This document shows positions 42,674 to 64,000 of a stretch of 64,000 bases of DNA, piece by piece. Origin of the DNA: Amoebophrya sp. A120 (taxonomy: Eukaryota > Protista > Dinoflagellata); the NCBI GenBank assembly GCA_905178155.1, contig CAJINV010000015.1, forward strand, positions 1,878,571 through 1,942,570, in the 5' to 3' direction. Numbering within the stretch: the first letter of the stretch is position 1; each line of letters starts with the position of its first letter. Under the pieces are notes generated by a model. It was not told the DNA's origin. It saw only the letters and a program-made list of their open reading frames with translations, and ran no database searches. A program made the translations under genes and the position numbers.

Positions 42674-43352
42674 TTTTACTCTCATTTCACTCGCTAAAAG
42701 TCGCAATCGCTTATGGTGACCCTTGTCCGTGCGGGGAACTCTCGAAATGCGAGAGCCGGGTGAAAATATTGCCGTCGTGGGAAAAAATGTGAAAGTGTGA
42801 GAAAATGCTCACCCGTCAACAACGTCTGTGCCCTTTTAAGCTAGCTCCTACGCTCGTTTCACTCGAGTAAAATTGCATTTGCGGGCTCTTCATTTGGTAT
42901 TTTACTCTCATTTCACTCGCTAAAAGTCGCAATCGCTTATGGTGACCCTTGTCCGTGCGGGGAACTCTCGAAATGCGAGAGCCGGGTGAAAATATTGCCG
43001 TCGCTCTCGCAACAACACTTCCGGGCCCGAACACGTTGTCAATCAAATGTGATTGACCTGGTGGTGAACTCAGTCCAACCGGTCGCTGACGGCCTCGATA
43101 AAGAGCGACTGAGCTCCGAGGAAGAATACGCCAACAGGTCATAGACCGGAAGAAAGTCTAAATGAAATGTGACAAATCGTCTATGCTCAGAGGGAGGTGG
43201 CGCTACTCACCTTCATTGGAAAATAGACGGAAAAAAATGTGAAAGCGTGAGAAAATGCTCACCCGTCAACAACGTCTGTGCCCTTTTAAGCTAGCTCCTA
43301 CGCTCGTTTCACTCGAGTAAAATTGCATTTACGGGTTCTTCATTTGGTATTT
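42674..43352. repeat. Split direct repeat A-B-A-C-B
   Basis: A (104 bp) at 42674-42777 and 42900-43003; B (~120 bp) at 42782-42902 and 43232-43352; near-identical copies. Confidence 0.9.
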
Positions 43353-49478: not shown

Positions 49479-52400
49479 CTACGGTGGAGAAGTGATGATG
49501 CGATCGTACAGCTCTCTGGCCAAAGCCTCACTTCCGCGCCAATTCGGATGCAAATTGTCGCGCTGGTTATACAACTCGGGCGTCTCGTCTCCGCGGAGCA
49601 CGTCATTGGTACTCAATGCCGTGATGTTATGCTTTGCAAAAGTATCGCGCTAGTGGTAATAAATTGCACTGTTGCCAAACTTCAATTTTCACTAGTTAAA
49701 GGGCTGAATTTGTAATGCTGAATTACCGAAAAAGGAGTAGAGTTGTGACGCGAGCTTGCAATTACCAATTAGTACGAGCGCGATACAAACTTTTGCAGAG
49801 GATAGATGCGAATCCCTTGCAGCTGGGGGCTTCCGTTTTTAATTTCTTCTAGTGTATCCCTCAACACCGGAAAGCTTGCTTGGAGCAAGCTGCCGTAGAA
49901 GATATTCACGATCGCAGTCGTCCCACTCGAGGCCAGAAACGAGTTCCCGTATCAAATAGAAAAGTGCCCCCACCACAGAATGTGGACGTGTTCGTGTTCT
50001 GTTTGCATGGCAAAAATGAATAACTCTCAACGGAAACATCATCTCCCACATCATCATTTCCATTACACGGACCAGCATGACAAATTTGCAAGCCAGAGTA
50101 GCCAAAGTCTGTGGAGGTTCACAGCGCCACAGCATCAACGATGTCTGTCATGTTGAATCTGCACAATAATGGCGTAGATACTGCTACCAAATGCGTCGCA
50201 TTCAGCACTTTATGCAAAAATACAGAAGGTTTTATATTTGATGTTCCGTGTGCTGGCAAGTTTGCAACACAAGCTGTTTCTGTTTGGTCTACTCATACTC
50301 TCTCGTGGTCATGGTGGAGGTCGTGGGTGCCCTTTTCACTGTAATATCCCAAGAACCGCGTTGATGCCGATGTGGTTTCTAAAGTAGCCGGGGCGCGTCC
50401 TCGGGAGGCCAAGGAGGATGATTTCCTTCGGTTTTTTCCTCTCGGTCAAAAACTTCAAATATCTCGGAAAATTTTCCCGCCACAGAGTCCTGAGTGCGTC
50501 GATGACCTCTCGCTCTAAAGATCCATTCCAAAGTCCTTGGATGATCGCTTGGCGACTTTTCCCATAGAGAACTTGCGGCAAGATACAACTTTGGTGCAAG
50601 TCATTGCCCGAGACGTGCACCACGATGCGGTCGTGCTCCGTCACGGTGTCCCGAATCGCGATGTCGTTTGCGGGGTTGTTTGGACCGCCGGGGACGGAGC
50701 GGTTTCGTAGCATAGAGCCCGCTTGCGCAGCCATCACGCATTGGGTGGAGTTCCACGGGTTAAGAATATCGTCTGCAGTGCTGTCGTGGAAGAATTTCGG
50801 CAGATAATACATGATGTCCGGCTTGAGGTAGGCCATAAACTTGTCGTAAGTATTCGGCAGATCGTGCTTCCTCTCGTCGGTTTCCAAAAAACGCGAGCCA
50901 TCCATCCAAGAGTCGCCGGACATGGTCCGAATCACGCACCTAGAAATCACGCACCTACGCCAGGAAAGCAGTGGCGACCGCTTGCTGCATCTACGAAAAG
51001 CGACTCCCGGTCGGCGCTCCACCACCTACAAAAAAACACCTATGATCACGAAACAGCGCCCCAAAAAGCAGATATCAACATACAGAACTGCGGGCCGCCC
51101 GAACCAACGACGACGACCTAAGGCGGAAAACGAAACGCCATGCAAATCAAATCCATCTCCATGCCAAGTCTGTGTCTCTCACCTTGTTTTATCTGCCGCA
51201 CGCAGCAGATGCTAAAAGTGCAGCAGTTTGCATTGCGTTTGCATTTTGTCAGAGCGAATTCTGACACGAGCGAATTCTGACACTAGATCGCTCGAACTAA
51301 GAAAGAGAAAAAGGGAAGAAACCAACGACCCGATGTATCCACAGGTAAAAATCTAGGAGCACAACCAAAGATAGCACTGCCAGTCAGCCAGATAGTATTT
51401 TGTAGCAAGCGTTAGCTACTTTCGCGTTCTTTTTTTGATAGCTAGAAAACAAAAAATCTCCTACCAAGGCATAGTGGATAGTTTATTCCTTCTTTTCCAA
51501 ATTCGTTCGGATGCCACTTTGCGTTCTTTGAGAAGCAAAAGTTTAGATGTCATCTTGCTTGCATGATTTGAAAACCGAAAAACACAACTTGCGTCTATGA
51601 ATGCGCAGGAGGCCGTTTGTGTACAGATATAAATATGAATCTACGTCGCACGTACTTCCAGAAGTTTTTCCTCGTAAGCATCGCTCTTATGCGTGCCTGG
51701 CTATGTGTCTTCGCCTTTCCTTTCATTCTGAGCATCGACATGAATTCCGACGATGCTTCATTCATTCATAACTTATCTTTTTTACGGATGTTGTAGATAG
51801 AGATACTCACTCACTCACTGATGTGTATCCGGGAGAATGAAGCGTGACCCTTATAAATATATTGCGAAATGCGACCCCTCGTTGGTGTGTGTGCACTTCC
51901 TTCACCTTCGTGTTCGTTGGTGCGGCGAGCAGGAACCTGTTGTAAGTTCAGTAGTTAAGAGTAGTTATAATTTGCAATAGTGTCCCTCGGAAGATCTACG
52001 ACTTGAAAAAGTGCACTGCTGTGACTGCTTGGAATTGCGACTGCTCTACGGCGTCGGCAGCCGCGGCGAGTGTGTCAGTCAGCGCGATTTACTCCTGCAA
52101 GTGTGCCAAGCTCCTCTAGCATGCCCAGGACATCCCTGAAGTGCTCGGAACAAGAACAATCAGTCCGCGCATCACTCGATTTTGAAACTCTCACACACCA
52201 ACATGACGCGCATGCATTAAATCTACACATCTCACACACCAACAGCATGCATCTCACACACCAACATGACGAATCATTTTCTAAAAAAAACGCGAGCCAT
52301 CCATCCATCCAAGAGTCCATCCATCCAAACAGCGCGAGCCATCCAGTCCAATCCTTCCCCGTTTTTTGGAAACAAGCCCAACCATCCATCCATCCAGTCC

Positions 52401-53196
52401 CCGTTTTTTGGAAACAAGCCCAACCAACCATCCATCTGTCTGGATGGATGGACTTGGTCCCCGTTTTTTGGAAGCGCGAGCCATCCGCGTTTTTTGGAAA
52501 GAGTCCATCCAAACAGCGTTGTTTGGACATCCATCCTCGCGTTTCCAAAAAACGCGAGCCATCCACCCAAGAGTCGCCCGCAAGGTACACAACGCTAGCC
52601 GGCCGCGGGTTGCTTTGACTTTGATGGCCTGCTGCAGTCGTGTTTGCACTCAAAATGCCGCGGAGGTTCGCGACTATCTGCCTGACAGTTTGCCCATTCG
52701 TGCGCTCCCGGTACCCGTAATACCTGGTAGCGTTGATCTGTGTCAGGGTGGTTGCGGAGGCTCTTTCAGTGAAAGCGCCTCCGCCGCTGGTGCCAACGCT
52801 GCTGCCTCCCACCCCGTCGTTGCCTCCTCCGGCAGTTGGAGGCGGAGTGGGGGCCACGTTGTTCCCCTCTGTACCACTGGAAGTAGACCGCGCGTGGTTT
52901 TTATTAACCGCGACAATGAAGACTCCGGCCGTCGTAAGAAACGCGATGAGAACTATGGCCCAGAGTGGGAGACAGGGAGAACTGCGAGGAGACGGGTTCA
53001 AATGTTCGGATTGTTGCAGGAGGGTGTCATCAACTTCAGATCCTCCTGCATGACAAGATTTGGAATTCTTCGAGCCATCGCGGTTCTTCGAGCCATCGTG
53101 GTTTTGATGCTTTTGCTTTTCTCCACCCCGCCCCAACAAGAAAGGATCTTCGTCTGCATAGTACCGATGCTCTGCTAGAATCGTTGTTTGGGTCAT
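49479..53196 (-). CDS. SGNH/GDSL-type hydrolase, type II membrane-anchored, paralog 1 (1.6-kb insertion at the GDS motif; possibly a pseudogene)
   Basis: N-terminal TM, VYLAGDSW, VSGND, DNLHP; homologous to the two following copies. Confidence 0.7.
49628..49804. mobile_element. Introner family B (shared by the three SGNH paralogs)
   Basis: DR GATGT/GATGC; same site as 54795 and 59462. Confidence 0.85.
49950..50346. mobile_element. Introner family K (shared by the three SGNH paralogs)
   Basis: TAT-N6-GAAAAG…CTTTTCA-N5-ATA; DR TCCCG/TCCCA. Confidence 0.85.
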
Positions 53197-54645
53197 GATC
53201 GTGTTTTTGATTTTTTCTTCACTACCTCTGGGAAAAACCCAACAACATTCTAAATGCCTCGGAAAAGTTAAAGTTGAAGCTCTTGCTCTAGCTTCCCGCT
53301 TCTGAAATAAATGCACTGCCGGCGAGGTTTCCCAGTATGCTGCATTGATGTTGATCGTGAGCGCCATAAATTAATTAGCGAGTCAAAGAAATAGACGTCC
53401 TCCTGTGCCTTTCTTGGTATCTCTCAGCATTTTTTTTGCCATCCTCTCAGCATCTATATCCGACCATTGGTTTGCGTTTGAGTACTCATCATCTTCGTCA
53501 CCGAATGTCTACTGGATCAATCTCTAGAACAGATCTAGGCACTTCAGATTTGGGTCGCGACACTCTGACCGAATACTTCTAGAGCGGTTTTTATTTTCCG
53601 ATCCAAACTGGCCAAGCTCAACGCCTGGACGAGACCGTAGCCAGGTCGTGGTCGCTCCTACTACTGATCATCTTCCAGCAATAAGGAGCCTTCGCCCCAA
53701 CTCGATATCGCTCCAATAAAAACGACCTCGTGGCTCGTTCACGCTCAAAGGTAAGAACACATAGCAGGCCTTTATGAAGATGCTTTGTATCTTCACTTCA
53801 ATCATGAAGAGGAGGAGGAGGAGGACACCTCTATAGTCAGCTTCTAACTACTAAGCTACTCTCTTTTTTAAGCTAACCATAGGACATGTTTCTGAGGACG
53901 ACTAGCCGAGCTGGGGATAGGTTTTTATGGGTATGGGGTATGGGTATCTTTAAGAAATAGTCTTTTTTTATCATCCGCGCAGATGAATACTTACGCAACA
54001 AACCAAAACTTCTTTTCAGCGTGTCACATTTCCCGGTGATGTGGGGAAATCTCCAAAATGGACACGCATCATTTTTCTTGCGTTGTCAAAACAATCAAAC
54101 TGAATCTGAATACTAGCTGCTAGGAATCAACAGCTCACCTGCCAGAAGATTCAATTTGCTCACGTCTCCAAAAATAGTGATCTTTTTTGCACAAGATGCG
54201 CGAAGCTCTCTGAGCAGCAGAGCGAGAGCCCCGACAACCGGCGCGCTGTATCTTTTACCGATACTTACGTAAATAAACCGTAATTATACACGATTAGAAA
54301 AATAACCTAAATCATACAATTTAGAAAGCTCTACAAGTACTCCATACACGGGGACGGGTAAGTTGTGGAAGATCATTATACAAGAATTGCTCCTCCCCTT
54401 GTTCAGTCGAACCAAGACGAACGCAGAAAACCTAGCTCCATAATCAAAACATTTCTTCTTGTTTATCAGTCTTCACCTTTGCCTTTCTTGAAACATCACT
54501 CAATGAATACAATACCTAGGAAAAATCCAACTTTGTGTGTTAGTGTTAGTGTTAGAACATGTACATGGCACAGCCCGTAGCTGTCCGCTCAAATAAATCT
54601 TATCCCTGCTCAAATGTAGTTTAACAAATGACAAGATTTCAATGT

Positions 54646-57170
54646 CTACGGTGGAGAAGTGGTGATGTGATCGTACAGCTTTCTGGCCAAAACCTCACTC
54701 CCGCGCGAATTCGGATGCAAATTGTCGTGCTGGTTGTACAGGTCGGGCGTCTCGTCTCCGCGCAGCACGTCATTGGTAGTCAGTGTCGTGACGCTATGCA
54801 TTGCAAAAGTATCGCTATCGTGCTAGCAGTCGTGGCTGTTGCATAATTTTCGCCAAATTTATTTCTCCAGTTCCTGAAGGGCTACCAGTTTGTACGTGCG
54901 GAAGTACTTACCGATGAAAAAGGACAAGGAGTAGGGCTGTCATGCAACGTTGATGCAATAATTAGTACGAGCCCGATAGAATTACTTTTACTTTTGCAGA
55001 GGATAGATGCGGATCCCTTGCAATTCGGGGTTTCCATTCTGAATTTCGTTCAGTGTATCGGTCAACACCGGAAAACCTTCGCGGAGCAAGCTGAGATAGA
55101 ATTGGTTTACAATGTAGGTCCCGGTCGAGGCCAGAAACGTGCTCCCGTATAAAGTTGAAAAGTGCTCCCACCACAGAGTGTGGAAGTGTTATTCTTGTTT
55201 GCTCCGCAAATTATGCAAACATAACTGCCAAAGCCAACACAAACATCTCCCACATTCTTGCACGCACCAGAGAGTGCGGACCAATTTGCAAGCCGAAGTA
55301 GCGCTGAAAGTCTGTGATCTGTGCTGCATAGCGCCACAGCGTCAACGATGTCTGTCATGTTGAAGTTGAGTCTGCATAAATGGCTTAGATAGTGATAAGT
55401 ACTTACCAATAAATGCGTCGCATTCATCACTTTACGGAATACAGAAAGAAGTTTCCGTGTCAAAAAATTGCAACGCGAGCTACTGCTATTTGGTCTTCTC
55501 GTGGTCGTGGTGGGGGGGCACTTTTCATTCTAATATCCCGACCGCGTTGGCGATGTGGCCTCGAAAGTAGCCTGCGCGCGTCCTAGGAAGCGAGAGGACG
55601 ATGATGTCCTTCGGTTTTTTCTTCTCGGTCAAAAACTTCAGATACCTCGGAAAATTTTCCCGCCACAGAGTCCGGTATGCGTCGATGAATTCTCGCTTTA
55701 AAGATCCACCCAAAAGTCCGCTGATGATCGCTTGCCGGCTTTTCCCCAGGAGAACTTGCTGCAAGATACTTTGGTGTAAGTCATTGCCCGAGACGTGCAC
55801 CACAATGCGGTCGTGCTCCGTCACGGTGTCCCGAATCGCGACGTCGTTTGCGGGGTTGTTTGGACCGCCTGGGACGGAGCGGTCTCTCAGCGTAGAGCCC
55901 GCTTGCGCAGCCATCACGCATTGGGTGGAGCTGGAGTCTCCAGCCGTGCTGTCGTGGAACAGTTTCGACAGGTAATACATGATGTCCGGCTTCAGGTACG
56001 GCATAAACTTGTCGTATGTATTCGGTAGCTTGTTCTGCATTTTGTCGTTTGCAGTATCCACAAACGGCGAGACATCCATCCAAGAGTCGCCCGCAAGGTA
56101 CACGATGCGAGCCGTATTTGATGGCGCGTTTGCATTCAATATACCGCGGAGGTTCGCGACGATCTGCCTTATCAAGTGCAAAAGTGTCTGGGTCTGGAAG
56201 ATTCTGAGACTTGTCATGCAAGTTTTGCATGGCCGTCCATGATGTCGGTCGTGATTTTTGCCCTAGCATCAGAGATTTTTGGAGGGCTTCTGGATCATGC
56301 CTATTCCGCGCGACAAATGCCCTCTACTTCCCGTAGCAAAAATTGCATTCCCTTTGCTGCTCATGCAATACAGATTTTCATTTTTTTGAAAACCAAATGC
56401 AGCTGCAGCATCACAAGTTGCATTCTTCCAGAGGACCCAGACACTTTTACATTTGATATGCCTTACGGTTTGCCCATTCGTGCGCTCGTGCGCGTAGTAC
56501 TGGGCGGCGTCGATATGTGTGGGGGTGAAAGCGCCATTGCCCCCGCCGTTGCCTTTGCCATTAGATATGGATGTGTCAGAGTTGAAATCGACAAAGTTGA
56601 AATAACTTGTAATGCATAAGATGGATACCAGTTGGAGGCCCAACTTCGAAGCGGCGCACGACAAATTTCAGTAGAGCCGAAATCCAGTTTGTAATACTGT
56701 TCCGGTAAGCGTAAGGAAGACGCCTCTTGTCATGCTACTTTAGCAGCTCTATTTCTAACTACCCCGAAACAGGCTTACAGTCTGGTCCTTTTGCCTACTC
56801 TGCAAGACAGGCACTTTCTGCGTTGTATTTTATGCATGATATCATCAAACTATAATTTCAACTTTGACGATTTCAATCCTGACAGTTCCATAGTAGACCG
56901 CGCATGATTAACCGCGACAATGACTCCCGCCGTCGCACCCGCCACAGCGCCGAGGGACAGAAACGCGATGAGCACAATGGCCCAGATCGGGAGACAGGGG
57001 GAACTGCGACCAGAGGATTCGTTAAATTGTTCGGATTGTGGCACGCGGGTGTCATCAACTTCAGCTCCTCCTGCATGGTAAGTTTTCGACTTTTCTTCAT
57101 CCCGTCCCAGTAAGAGAGGATCTTCCTCTGCATACGACCGAGGCACTGCTGGAATTGTGTTTCCGGTCAT
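54646..57170 (-). CDS. SGNH/GDSL-type hydrolase, type II membrane-anchored, paralog 2
   Basis: Intact frame after removing 4 introners; blocks GDS, AGST, SGND, DNLHP. Confidence 0.85.
54795..55005. mobile_element. Introner family B (shared)
   Basis: DR GACGC/GATGC. Confidence 0.85.
55148..55535. mobile_element. Introner family K (shared)
   Basis: DR TCCCG/TCCCG. Confidence 0.9.
56170..56458. mobile_element. Introner family D, paralog-2 specific
   Basis: DR TGCCT/TGCCT; single TGCCT at empty sites ~52679 and ~60988. Confidence 0.95.
56566..56892. mobile_element. Introner family J, paralog-2 specific
   Basis: ~38-bp TIR TATGGA…GTTGAAATCGACAAAGTTGAAAT; DR TTAGA/GTAGA. Confidence 0.9.
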
Positions 57171-59312
57171 CGTGTTTTTGTTTTTGATTTTGATTTTGTC
57201 TTCACTTCCTCGCCGGGTCAAAAGTGAATAGCGTGTGCGCTCCTTCAGGTGAACGGGAAAAATGATAAGAGAAATACAATATATAATAAGCCTAGAGAAG
57301 TAAACTATAACCTAGGCACTTAGCTGAACGAGTACAATTCTTCTTTTGAAGTTTTTGCTTCGGGAAAGCAGGAGTTGGAGTTCTAGCTTCGTTCCTGCTA
57401 GTATAAAAATGCACGCAAGATGAAGTGGTCAAAACTATAAATAGAGGCTCTTTGCTATTCTACGATACTAGCTGCTGCTGTACAAGAAACTACTACTTAG
57501 GCTGATGTTCTACCGTGGTCAAAAGAGGCGGACGCGGACTGTGCCACTGCTATTCACATTTTTCTTGTACACGATCAAATGTCCTCCGGCTCGCTTTTGG
57601 GCAAGCATACACTTCTACATTGGGTTCTTTCAACGTTTTGATGCGACTTCTTCGTAATGAAAAATTCTCGAAAGAAATGATCTTGCTCAGAAACAGAGCT
57701 GATGTGCGCTCCTTCTAACTTTGTTGCAAGGTGAACTAGAGCGCACCAATGATCCAGTGAACTTCTACGTCAAGCCTTTCAAGATCATGAAGAACGTTTG
57801 CAGATGAGCTTCGTCTTGGTTCTTTATTTGGATCTGCGAGACAGAGCGATGATGAAGCGGATCTGTTCTGGATCTTCACAGGCGAGTATGACTGCCGTCA
57901 GTTCTGTTTTTGACAGATTTGAATACAGGGACAGCCACAGTCGTAGTGTGATGAGTTGTAGTTGATCTTCCTTCAGTAGTTCATGTGATCATGCCAAGGA
58001 CAGCACGCGGAATGGAAGAGCGCGTCTGTCCTCGCTGTTTCTGAAAACAAATACCACGCCGTCCTCCACACAGCCGCAGGGCACAGGACAATGTCAGACA
58101 GAGGGTCCTCGTCAACCATTTTTTGTCTTTTTCATGCGTTTCCCCTCCTCTTAGTATCTAACTATATCTTCCGGCCATTGGTTTGAGTAATATTCATCAC
58201 CGAATGTCTACTGGATCAATCTCTAGAGCAGATCTAGGCACTTCAGATTTGGGTCGCGACACTCTGGCCGAATACTTCCAGAGCGGTTCTTTTTTCCCGA
58301 TCCAAAATGGGCGAGCTCGACGCCTGGAGACCGTAGCCAGGTCGTGGTCGCTGCTACTACTGGTCATCTTCCTGCAATAAGGAGCCTTCGTATCGCTCCA
58401 AAAAAAACAATCTCGCGGCTCGCTCACGCTCAAAAGTATAGAACACATAACAGGCCTTTATGAAGATGCTTTCTATCATCTAAAGAAATAGCTCTTTTCT
58501 TCACCCGCGCAAATGAATACGCAACAAACCAAAACTTCTTTTTAGCGTGTCACATTTCCCGGTGATGTGGGGAAATCTCCAAAATGGACACGCATCATGT
58601 TTCTTGCGCTGTCAAAACAGTCAAACTGAATCTGAACCCTAAGTAGCTGCTAGGAATCAACAGCCCTGCCAGAAGATTCAATTTGCTCAAGTCTCCAAAA
58701 ATAGTGATCTTTTTTGCACAAGATGCGCGAAGCTCTCCGAGGACCAGAGCGAGAGCCCCGACAACCGGCGCGTTGTATCTTTTACCGATACTTACGTAAA
58801 TAAACCGTAATGATACACGATTAGAAAAACCTAAATCATACAATTATAACCGCTCTACAATTATACACGGGAGGTAAGTAGAAGATCATCATACAATAAT
58901 TGCTCCTCTTCGCCATCGGTTTCCTCGCCCGCCAGCGGCGTAAGTAAATTTTTAAGCTCGTCCTTCAGCGCCGCGCTTATCGCGTTGTCCTCCGAATCGG
59001 GTCGGCGGTTTTGCGTGTACCGCTCGACCTTCTTCCGCCACTTTCTCCCGTCCTGGGTGGTGTAGAGCGTGGCGTCGGTCGCATCTTCCGACCGAAACAA
59101 GACGAAAGCAGAAGACCTAGCTCCATACAACATTTCTTCTTGTTTATCCGTCTTCACCTTTCTTGAAACATCACTCAATACCTCGGAAAAATCCAACTTT
59201 GTGTTTTAGTGTTAGTGCTGTTAGTGTTAGAACATGGCACAGCCCGTAGCTGTTCTCTCAAAATCTTTATTCCTCCTCAAATGTAGTGTAACAAATGATA
59301 AGATTTCAATTT

Positions 59313-61862
59313 CTACGGTGTAGAAGTGATTATGTGATCGTACAGCTTTCTGGCCAAAACCTCACTCCCGCGCCAATTCGGATGCAAATTGTCGTGCTGG
59401 TTATAGAGGTCGGGCGTCTCGTCTCCGCGGAGCACGTCATTGGTAGTCAATGTCGTGACGTTATGCATTTTTGCAAAAGTATCGCTATCGTGCTCGAAGT
59501 CGTGGTAATTGCATACATAATTTTCGCCAAATTTATTTCTCCAGTTCTTGAAGGGCTGAATTTGTACGTGCGGAACTACCGATGAAAAAGAACAAGGAGT
59601 AGAGTTGTCATGCAAGGTTGATGCAACAATGAGTACGAGCCCGATAATGCAACTTTTGCAGAGGATAGATGCGGATCCCTTGCAACTCGGGGTTTCCATT
59701 CTGAATTTCGCGCAGTGTATCCCTCATCACCGGAAAACCTTCGCGGAGCAAGCTGAGATAGAAAGCGTTCACACGCGACGTCCCGAACGTGGTCAGACGC
59801 CCGTTCCCGCCGTATCAAATTGAAAAGTGCTCCCACCACAGAGTGTGAAAGTGTTATTCTTGTTTGCTCCGCAAATCCAAATTATGCAACAATAACTGCA
59901 TCAAAACAAACATCTCCCACATTCTTGCACGCACAAGAGAGTGCGGAGCAATTTGAAATCTGAAGTAGCGATGAAAGTCTGTCTGTGCTGGACAGCGCCA
60001 CAGGCACACCATAAACGCTGTCGGTCATGTTGAGTCAGCATAAATGGCCTAGATAGAAGTGATACTTACCAATAAATGCGTCGCATTCACTTTACGGAAT
60101 ACGGAAAGAAGTTTCCGTGTCAAAAAATAGCAACGCAAGGGCAAGCTGTTTGGTCGTCTCGTGGTCGTTACGGGAGGGTGCGCTTTTCATTCTCATATCC
60201 CGACCAGGTTGGCGACGTGGCCTCGAAAGTAGCCTGCGCGCGTCCTAGGAAGGGACAGGACGATGATCTCCCGCGGTTTTTTCCTCTCGGTCAAAAATAT
60301 GCATTGCAAAAGTATCGTACTAGTATAAATCGCAATACAAATTGCCTCAGCATTAGAAATGGAATTTGTGATGCTGTTTTACATTAGGAAGAAGATTTGT
60401 CATGCATATTTGCAATTACTACGAGTTCGAGTGCGATACTTTTGCACAGGATAAAAAACTTCAGATACCTCGGGAAATTTTCCCGCCACAGAGTCCGGTA
60501 TGCATTGATGATTTGTCGCTTCAAAGATCCACTGCCCCATTCTCCGGCGATCTGCGACCAACTTTTACCCTGGAGAACTTGCTGCAAGATACTTTGGTGT
60601 AAGTCATTGCCCGAGACATGCACCACGATGCGGTCGTGCTCCGTCAGGGTGTCCCGTATCGCGACGTCGTTTGCGGGGTTGTTTGGACCGCCTGGGACGG
60701 AGCGGTCTCTCAGCGTTGAGCCCGCTTGCGCGGCCATGACACATTGGGTGGAGCTGGCATCTCCAGCCGTGCTGTCGTGGAAGAGTTTCGACAGGTAATA
60801 CATGATGTCCGGCTTCAGGTACGGCATAAACTTGTCGTACGTATTCGGGAGCTTGTTCTGCATTTTGTCGTTTGCAGTATCCACAAATGGCGAGACATCC
60901 ATCCAAGAGTCGCCCGCAAGGTACACGATGCGAGCCGTATTTGATGGCGCGTTTGCATTCAAAATACCGCGAAGGTTTGCGACGATCTGCCTTACGGTTT
61001 GCCCATTCGTGCGCTCGGGCTCGTAGTACCGGTCGGCGTTGATCTGTGTGGGGGTGAAAGCGCCATCGCCCCCGTTGCCTCCATTGTTGTCTCCGCTGGT
61101 GCCTCCGCCATTGCCTCCGCCATTGCCTCCGCCATTGCCTCCGCCATTGCCTCCGCCATTGCCTCCGCCATTGCCTCCGCCATTGCCTCCGCCGGTGCCT
61201 CCGCCGGTGCCTCCGCCATTGCCTCCGCCGGTGCCTCCGCCATTGCCTCCACCATTGCCTCCGCCACTACCTCCGCCGGTGCCTCCACCATTGCCTCCGC
61301 CGGTGCCTCCGCCATTGCCTCCGCCGGTGCCTCCACCATTGCCTCCGCCGGTGCCTCCGCCGGTGCCTCCGCCGGTGCCTCCGCCGGTGCCTCCGCCGGT
61401 GCCTCCGCCGGTGCCTCCGCCGGTGCCTCCGCCGGTGCCTCCGCCGGTGCCTCCGCCGGTGCCTCCGCCGGTGCCTCCGCCGGTGCCTCCGCCGGTGCCT
61501 CCGCCGGTGCCAACGCCGGTGCCAACGCCGGTGCCTCCCCCCCCGTCATTGCCTCCTCCGGCAGATGGAGGCGGAGCGGGGACGTTGTTCCCTTCTGTAC
61601 CACTCCGCGCGTGGTTAACCGCGACAATCACTCCCGCCGTCGTACCCGCCACAGCGCCGAGGGAGAGAAACGCGATCAGCAGTATGGCCCAGAGTGGGAG
61701 ACAGGGGGAACTGCGAGCGGAGGGGTTCAGTTGTTCGGTCTCAGCAGCTTCACCAGGTCCTCCTGCATGGTAAGTTTTCGACTTTTCTTCATCCCGTCCC
61801 CGTAAGAGAGGATCTTCCTCTGCATACGACCGAGGCACTGCTGGAAGTGTTTTTCCGGTCAT
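59313..61862 (-). CDS. SGNH/GDSL-type hydrolase, type II membrane-anchored, paralog 3 with long Gly-rich stalk
   Basis: Intact frame after removing 3 introners; blocks GDS, AGST, SGND, DNLHP; ends …HIITSTP*. Confidence 0.85.
59462..59667. mobile_element. Introner family B (shared)
   Basis: DR GACGT/GATGC. Confidence 0.85.
59813..60197. mobile_element. Introner family K (shared)
   Basis: DR CGCCG/TCCCG. Confidence 0.85.
60298..60453. mobile_element. Introner family B, paralog-3 specific
   Basis: DR AAAAA/AAAAA; single AAAAA at empty sites ~50448 and ~55631. Confidence 0.95.
61098..61540 (-). repeat. Coding 12-bp tandem repeat (GGGT/GGGN)
   Basis: More than 30 units of GCCTCCGCC(GGT/ATT) on +. 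Confidence 0.95.
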
Positions 61863-63551: not shown

Positions 63552-64000
63552 TATGCATTGCAAATATGTCTGGGTCTGGAAACTTGTGATGCACGTTAGT
63601 CATATAGCAAATGCACAGCACTGTAATGCGCGGCCAAGCATGACAACGTTTTTTTGTGCTTCTGTGCTACGTATTCCGCATGAGAAACTGCGTTTTTGCA
63701 TGACAGGGAAGAGGAGCGCTTCGCGGCCACGCAATACAGAGCCAGGAGTCATGGTGCCAGAACAGCATGTATCCTGTGCAAAAGTATCGCACTCGTATTG
63801 CAATCGTCGTTCGTTCGTTGTGGATCGGCTCTGCCGACCGGGTAACCCAACGCCTTACATATAAATGACCGACTTAGGCGAACCCCGTTGCGGGCATACA
63901 AATTGGCCGTACGGAAGGGCCCTAAGCGCTACATACATAGTTCACCCTAAGCGCCTACCACTTCGGTCTGGGACCTCGTCTACCTGATCCTGGGGGTCCA
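63552..64000. mobile_element. Family D introner with nested family B introner (63770) and a third insertion (~63807), truncated by window end
   Basis: 63552-63769 is a reverse-complement relative of 37341-37596; family B TIR starts 63770 and breaks into CGTTCGTTCGTT plus unrelated sequence. Confidence 0.85.

Follow-up and report, generated by a model that had tools for sequence, protein, structure and literature searches.

The dinoflagellate Amoebophrya sp. A120 carries introners in three tandem SGNH-like genes located within a 64-kb stretch of contig CAJINV010000015.1 (hereafter the window, i.e. the whole 64,000 nucleotides analysed, whose encoded proteins bear A120 names). Our analysis of these genes makes it probable that A120 introners arrive as DNA transposons, that two of them (56170 and 60298) were gained after the split of gene copies 2 and 3, and that a related genome has precisely lost two older ones via complementary DNA (cDNA). 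We also lean, by a small margin, towards a more specific picture, in which splicing of introners follows a ruler, with cuts 1 nt ahead of the terminal hairpin and 4 nt beyond it irrespective of the bases, and in which introners arrive singly as DNA and leave in batches via cDNA.

Self-comparison of the window revealed many repeats of 110–400 bp with inverted ends. A scan for TAT..ATA inverted-repeat pairs gave 36 raw pairs, of which 29 were kept, while each of five shuffled versions of the window gave none. One of the retained rows was a spurious inner pairing, and the scan overlooked two elements (59462 and 56566), which were positioned manually. Within the set of 29, mean identity of the flanks was 0.91 at length 5 as against 0.15–0.33 at lengths 2–4 and 6–9, and a perfect 5-mer direct repeat was present in 20 elements. 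Outside the gene trio, after two of 23 rows with mis-set ends had been dropped, 21 correctly bounded elements were found to carry 21 different 5-mers (17/21 perfect). These data support the view, already put forward in the initial annotation, that the 5-bp direct repeat is a target-site duplication (TSD), of fixed length and site-specific sequence; the argument is that the 5-mer differs from site to site, and not that empty sites exist.

The ends of the elements fit the A120 motif given in section 11 of Farhat et al. 2021 (PMC7789003), i.e. terminal inverted repeats (TIRs) of 8–20 nt that begin with TAT, followed by about seven looser bases and then at least three A. Element 56566 has the TAT start and a long inverted repeat, but is without an A run at the motif spacing. 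In all 12 elements that were folded, 13–24 of the first 25 nt are predicted to pair with the far end (folding z of −1.6 to −8.1, 30 shuffles each). The elements are also repeated genome-wide: they have many relatives in the window, and contigs of the DNA runs, at 95% or more, pile up on the private elements described below. The elements of the trio are members of the published A120 introner class, i.e. of a known kind, which the definition in PMC7789003 describes as carrying a 3–5 nt direct repeat across the exon/intron borders. The relevant part of PMC12130899 attributes some A120 introners to TIR transposons, and a passage of PMC12005148 restricts elements of this kind to part of the genus. 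Elsewhere in the window (63552–63805), an introner of the 56170 family is apparently cut, or joined to the end of a 60298-family element, at 63770, which would make it a nested or chimeric element.

The three paralogs form a head-to-tail array on the minus strand, with copy 3 at 61862–59313, copy 2 at 57170–54646 and copy 1 at 53196–49479. Their products share a membrane anchor predicted from sequence, a Pro/Gly linker and an SGNH-like domain. The open frames of copies 2 and 3 are restored by deleting each element together with 5 nt, which yields proteins of 430 aa (four introners removed) and 596 aa (three introners removed, with a long Gly/Thr repeat linker), respectively. The open frame of copy 1 (491 aa) is obtained only if a 1,661-bp block is removed as well. 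Copy 2 is covered by RNA-like contigs, and so is copy 3 as far as 61060, where the compared stretch ends. Copies 2 and 3 had been described as very similar; alignment gave a coding identity of approximately 91%, but with a synonymous divergence (dS) of 0.17 (95% interval 0.12–0.24) they are not young. The dS values from copies 2 and 3 to copy 1 are 0.33–0.37, and the ratio of nonsynonymous to synonymous divergence (dN/dS) within the trio is 0.38–0.50.

Nine introners, all in minus-strand orientation, interrupt these genes. Two of them occupy the same sites in all three copies: S2 at 49628–49804 in copy 1 (repeat 4/5, removed in the annotated protein P0003), 54795–55005 in copy 2 and 59462–59667 in copy 3 (repeat 3/5), and S1 at 49950–50346 in copy 1 (repeat 4/5, placed by its anatomy and the annotated P0003), 55148–55535 in copy 2 and 59813–60197 in copy 3 (repeat 3/5). 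The remaining three are private to one copy. Copy 2 alone contains 56170 (56170–56458; perfect TGCCT duplication, inverted repeat 23/25) and 56566 (56566–56892), a member of another family, whose repeat (TTAGA/GTAGA) matches at four of five positions because a linker deletion in copy 2 begins at its 3' splice site (56561). Copy 3 alone contains 60298 (60298–60453; perfect AAAAA duplication). This is the distribution reported in the initial annotation, all nine elements being in place. Its further statement that empty sites carry one copy of the 5-mer holds for five of the six empty sites of the trio; at the 56566 site of copy 3 a 9-bp in-frame deletion (about 61605) has removed the target 5-mer. 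Small indels cluster at the edges or targets of introners, as seen in the linker deletion of copy 2, in the 9-bp deletion of copy 3 and in a 3-bp duplication at S1 of the latter copy (59808).

Splice joints were read from contigs of four runs of one sample, which are only guessed to be RNA. These RNA-like contigs skip every one of the seven elements in copies 2 and 3, each time as the element plus 5 nt. Five of the joints are present in 4/4 runs (S2 of copy 2, 216 nt; S2 of copy 3, 211 nt; S1 of copy 3, 390 nt; 60298, 161 nt; 56566, 332 nt), one in 3/4 (S1 of copy 2, 393 nt) and one in 1/4 (56170, 294 nt). The last of these sits on a copy-2-specific contig that also bears the joint of the copy-2-only element 56566. 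No joint for S1 and S2 of copy 1 was observed in the RNA-like contigs, whose cover of this copy is thin, and this is not taken as evidence of silence. One of the eight listed joints (56201–60392; depth 4, in a single run) was not counted, being regarded as a fragment of an element located elsewhere, so that seven remain.

The decayed repeats limit how far each joint can slide. S1 of copy 3 has zero slide: its cut is fixed at 59809–60198, with four bases retained from the 5' repeat and one from the 3' repeat, while the limit is at least three bases for S2 and at most four for 56566. Register k=4, in which the cuts lie 1 nt ahead of TAT and 4 nt beyond ATA, is the sole one that fits all seven joints. 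Six of the seven junctions have no GT/GC..AG reading in any register, and 56170 allows GC..AG at one of eight registers. Canonical GT-AG introns were also considered for the trio genes and were rejected, as several GTAAG motifs are present with no joints. Introns with an N-T start are predicted by the 1/4 register, and this start is found in each of the nine non-canonical pairs that predominate in A120 (Table S4); the legend of Fig. S23 in PMC7789003 mentions '1-5 nucleotides', which may describe the same offset. From these data we infer that the cut position is measured from the terminal hairpin, not read from GT/AG. Some caution is imposed by the fact that one joint alone (S1 of copy 3) fixes the register and that 56170 can also be read as GC..AG, as well as by the origin of the joints, which are found in contigs of a single sample of presumed RNA status, with that of 56170 confined to one run. 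If the ruler operates, it would erase any 5-bp insertion in either orientation.

A single 5-mer at an empty site might be read as a sign of gain. This reading is not supported, since splicing removes the element plus 5 nt: the spliced message equals the pre-insertion sequence, and a loss through cDNA would therefore leave the same single 5-mer. Gain and loss cannot be separated by the 5-mer, and the direction thus needs a tree. A scan of metagenome contigs provided two loci (L001 and L002, among 477 pattern matches), so that five homologues (copies 1–3, L001 and L002) were scored for the filled or empty state; P0005 (GSA120T00013164001), a fourth and distant A120 paralog, served as the outgroup.

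L002 corresponds to copy 1 as its ortholog, at a dS of 0.120. It contains S1 and S2 and is empty at all three private sites. A further private element, belonging to L002, lies at 524–681 and has a perfect GCCGA repeat; its site is empty in copy 1. It belongs to the same family as S2 and 60298, but is in the opposite orientation. At L002:1167 a 24-bp deletion removes the 5' repeat of S1, the frame being kept under the 1/4 cut. L001 is a gene of the copy-2/3 type, with an open frame of 1,061 nt that contains no introns. It is devoid of the private elements, and S1 and S2 are precisely absent, with one CGGGA and one GCATC left. At a distance of 2.2 kb downstream (L001:3201–3807) there is a CobW-like gene, with no match in the window, that contains two introners of window families. 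Because this neighbour carries introners, the L001 contig is considered genomic, and its content shows that the related genome shares active introner families of the A120 type. Fourfold sites differ at 16 of 135 positions between copies 2 and 3, and at 13 of 128 between the two genomes.

Elements 56170 and 60298 are each present in one of the five homologues, and 56566 in copy 2 only. In all likelihood the former two are gains that followed the split of copies 2 and 3, while 56566 is a likely gain, at a lower level of confidence. Gain is favoured for 56170 and 60298 because the ortholog of copy 1, L002, is empty at the private sites; the emptiness of L001 was excluded from this evidence, as it may be a cDNA product. 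A gain also requires one event, compared with an older gain followed by removal from a sibling that keeps its introners just 3' of the site. The proposed mechanism is that DNA elements would insert via a 5-nt staggered cut made by a putative transposase, and that a cut at hairpin-set positions would let the mRNA regain the pre-insertion sequence.

The private elements look younger than the shared ones. The repeats of 56170 and 60298 are perfect, and the inverted ends of the private elements match at 20–23 of 25 positions, with folding z of −4.6 to −8.1, compared with 16–20 matches in 25–29 aligned columns and folding z of −1.9 to −5.0 for the shared elements. Among 15 family members compared, 60298 is 81–82% identical to its three nearest; for S2 the identity to family members is 56–70%. 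Summed DNA depth, which is not a copy number, is 1.5e4–7.7e4 in private-element bins and 55–274 in S1/S2 bins. The initial claim of recent gain (or precise loss) is supported in part: 56170 and 60298 are most simply gains, but 'recent' is bounded only by the split of copies 2 and 3 (dS about 0.17), which approximates the split from the related genome (dS 0.12–0.14), and 56566 is ambiguous.

The alternative that has to be taken most seriously, although it is unlikely, is that one or more of the private elements are older, having already been carried by the common ancestor of copies 2 and 3 before being lost from the sibling (precisely in the case of 56170 and 60298, and imprecisely, with the 9-bp deletion, in the case of 56566). 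Several observations speak for it and hence against gain. The copy 3 deletion covers exactly the 56566 target 5-mer, which allows an older gain followed by imprecise loss; spliced mRNA is identical to the empty site; and precise loss appears to occur in this family, being likely in L001, so that a loss from the sibling is conceivable for 56170 and 60298. No transposase was found, although no search aimed at one was made, and section 16 of PMC7789003 reports no cognate transposase in A120. Such losses would, however, require two events per site instead of one, the siblings keep their own introners 3' of the site (S1 of copy 2 lies about 100 bp away), which argues against a 3'-primed cDNA tract, and the private elements look younger than S1 and S2. 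We therefore prefer gain for the private elements.

The opposite direction is suggested for S1 and S2 in L001, for which a precise double loss is very likely, judging from the sequence comparisons. L001 is joined with copies 2 and 3 against copy 1 and L002 by 70 of 93 informative columns (bootstrap 100), and these are spread across the gene, including the exon between S1 and S2. The dS from L001 is 0.14–0.17 to copies 2 and 3 (0.138 to copy 2) and 0.35–0.40 to copy 1 and L002. The elements themselves show the same pattern, with a divergence of 0.08–0.09 between copy 1 and L002, 0.10–0.12 between copies 2 and 3, and 0.14–0.27 between the groups. As the divergence of S1 and S2 follows the gene tree, both elements appear to predate the L001 split, which supports the initial annotation in treating the two introners common to the three copies as ancestral to the trio. 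Gene conversion spreading S1 and S2 after the L001 split was rejected, since both the inter-element exon and the elements follow the gene tree.

Given a double loss, a cDNA route is the likely one, because two unrelated elements 142 bp apart left together and the S2 site keeps the version of the repeat that is kept by splicing. Either the gene recombined with a spliced cDNA, or such a cDNA was retroposed. It is rather improbable that L001 lost S1 and S2 directly as DNA, each being excised independently by a transposase with repair through the 5-bp repeat. Such excision would agree with the DNA-transposon ends of the elements, with the clustering of indels at element edges in copy 2, copy 3 and L002, and with the fact that no poly(A) remnant was seen in L001. 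On the other hand, it needs two precise events in two unrelated families 142 bp apart, and the L001 S2 site retains the 5' repeat version GCATC as splicing does, an outcome that codon selection could also produce. For the cDNA route it is unfavourable that no poly(A) tract is seen in L001 where its likeness ends (about 355 nt past the stop, near L001:1416, into an 18-bp tandem repeat), and that the 5' end of L001 is cut off, the available sequence starting inside the Gly repeat.

The double loss also depends on the position of the root. With P0005 as the outgroup, the clade of copy 2, copy 3 and L001 received a support of 91/94, with eight columns for it and two against. The approximately unbiased (AU) test nevertheless does not reject L001 outside the four intron-bearing copies (p 0.11, and p 0.40 when the alignment was shorter and the model different). 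This weighs against the loss, which rests on clock-like distances and a few characters. It leaves room for a history of gains only, with L001 as the earliest branch that never had S1 and S2 and with no precise loss, to which the two columns joining L001 with P0005 alone also lend support. We regard this history as still less probable than DNA excision. It would require the stem of copy 1 and L002 to run 2–3 times faster, at synonymous sites and in the elements alike; eight columns and two indels join P0005 with copy 1 and L002 against copies 2, 3 and L001; and the dS of 0.138 between L001 and copy 2 matches that of the orthologs copy 1 and L002 (0.120). Finally, an artefact in which the assembly placed alleles or chimeric paralogs in tandem might be suspected from the chimeric gene model P0002 described below and from the lack, among the listed DNA contigs, of one spanning a whole private element, but it is extremely improbable. 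DNA contigs unique to copy 2 (55072–55584) and copy 3 (59734–60246) show 0 differences at depths of 43 and 41, like other single-copy pieces (40–47); RNA-like contigs specific to one copy bridge each element of copies 2 and 3; and a dS of 0.17 separates these copies.

As regards known systems, the elements resemble the A120 introners in the corresponding sections of PMC7789003 in organism, TAT-N7-AAA ends, 5-bp repeats over exon borders, non-canonical junctions, hairpin and the presence of many families. In the part of that paper concerned with borders, their positions were left variable or unknown, whereas here the decayed repeats fix the 1/4 nt cut; section 16 considers gain and loss indistinguishable in the comparison of A25 and A120, whereas here a much closer relative polarises events. 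The introners of Micromonas, Aureococcus and Symbiodinium with TSDs and TIRs are likewise non-autonomous DNA elements according to the relevant parts of PMC9860276, PMC11282704 and PMC12130899, where splicing usually leaves the mRNA length unchanged and empty orthologous sites have been used before as evidence. As described there, those introners carry or co-opt GT/GC and AG, whereas six of the seven trio junctions have neither. The nonconventional introns of euglenids share, in the section of PMC11282704 devoted to them, non-canonical ends joined by terminal inverted repeats, TSD-like repeats and a probable origin from miniature inverted-repeat transposable elements (MITEs); they differ in lineage and in a pyrimidine|purine border consensus unlike the trio ends with their N-T start. 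L001 is similar to cases of cDNA-mediated precise intron loss and to dinoflagellate retrogenes (PMC5585692, PMC6050394) in the precise lack of two adjacent introns. It differs from them in showing no poly(A) remnant, in a sequence that lacks the 5' end, and in that non-canonical introners are what was lost.

The elements have been described already, and what the locus adds is the base-exact splice register, the polarised probable gains and the probable double loss; a literature search whose scope excluded subscription papers, figures and most supplements found no report of precise loss or of polarised gain within a gene family for Amoebophrya introners. In all, four probable gains and a probable double loss are polarised within a single gene family. 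Decayed target-site repeats allow the splice position to be read to the base, which suggests a structure-measured cut in an organism reported to be without U1 small nuclear RNA, and a relative at approximately 10–12% neutral divergence polarises single events. In this way the questions of gain or loss and of the borders, left open by the describing paper, become testable. The locus is also a warning: where the original site is restored by splicing, gain cannot be proved by comparing filled and empty sites, as a precise double loss seems to have occurred in the same family. If the proposed scheme is true, a close relative with the same families would let the rates of gain and loss be counted genome-wide.

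The genes themselves are likely to encode an esterase, the SGNH identity of which is suggested by fold and motifs, below the Pfam cut-off. The motifs LAGDSW, VSGNDL and DNLHP (the GDS, GND and DxxH blocks) are present in all five homologues, except that L002 has DKLHP in place of DNLHP. The Atlas comparison gave a feature score of 0.93 and TM values of 0.58–0.74 to clusters that are SGNH-named or unnamed. In Pfam no family reached the cut-off for the SGNH-like proteins or exon pieces, and the gathering score of Lipase_GDSL/_2 was not attained (P0003 against PF13472, 14 bits with 32.9 needed, E 0.073); weak matches to EDD and BcsF were rejected as too short. A PDB sequence search returned nothing below E 0.4. 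The profile search (17 hits, three below 1e-30) gave no close orthologue from other Amoebophrya lineages, and three of the six distant matches that were scanned weakly match GDSL.

Copy 1 is split at its catalytic GDS motif by the 1,661-bp block (50880–52540), which is bordered by a 38-bp repeat (50880–50917 and 52541–52578). The 5' part of the gene (52541–53196, minus strand) encodes the predicted membrane anchor, the Pro/Gly linker and the start of the domain, while the 3' part (49479–50923, minus strand), with the SGNH-like domain, is annotated separately as a 286-aa gene starting MSGDSW (P0003); the published annotation accordingly has two genes at copy 1, P0001 and P0003. The block is absent in L002, and its DNA depth is approximately 2–3 times that of single-copy sequence, with variants, which points to repetition elsewhere. 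It is likely an insertion that split copy 1 in A120. It holds three further scrambled copies of the target motif (52290–52490), resembling template-switch scars. No RNA-like joint was found across the block, the contig cover of copy 1 being thin.

Some further features of the tandem array deserve mention. In a short stretch of copy 3, noted at about 60520–60580 and 59760–59810, 21–22 of 60 bases differ from copy 2 and L001, mostly changing amino acids, compared with 1–5 differences per 60 in most other stretches; this may reflect either local rapid change or conversion from another paralog. The Gly/Thr/Asn linker of copy 3 is encoded by a long 12-bp tandem array (61090–61530); its end is common to L001, and the array is deleted in copy 2. 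The 3' flank of copy 3 contains a 177-bp insert (58912–59088), absent in the four other homologues, with a TCTTC repeat at its borders and without TAT..ATA ends; it reads as a minus-strand coding fragment and is retained in RNA-like contigs (58782–59361, no gap). The gene model P0002 (CAD7968916.1; from about 61090 to 55030) begins in copy 3 and switches to copy 2, and is a chimeric annotation across tandem paralogs that would create a false multi-kb non-canonical intron. Outside the trio, near-identical direct repeats of 104–124 bp lie in an AT-rich stretch at 42674–43352.

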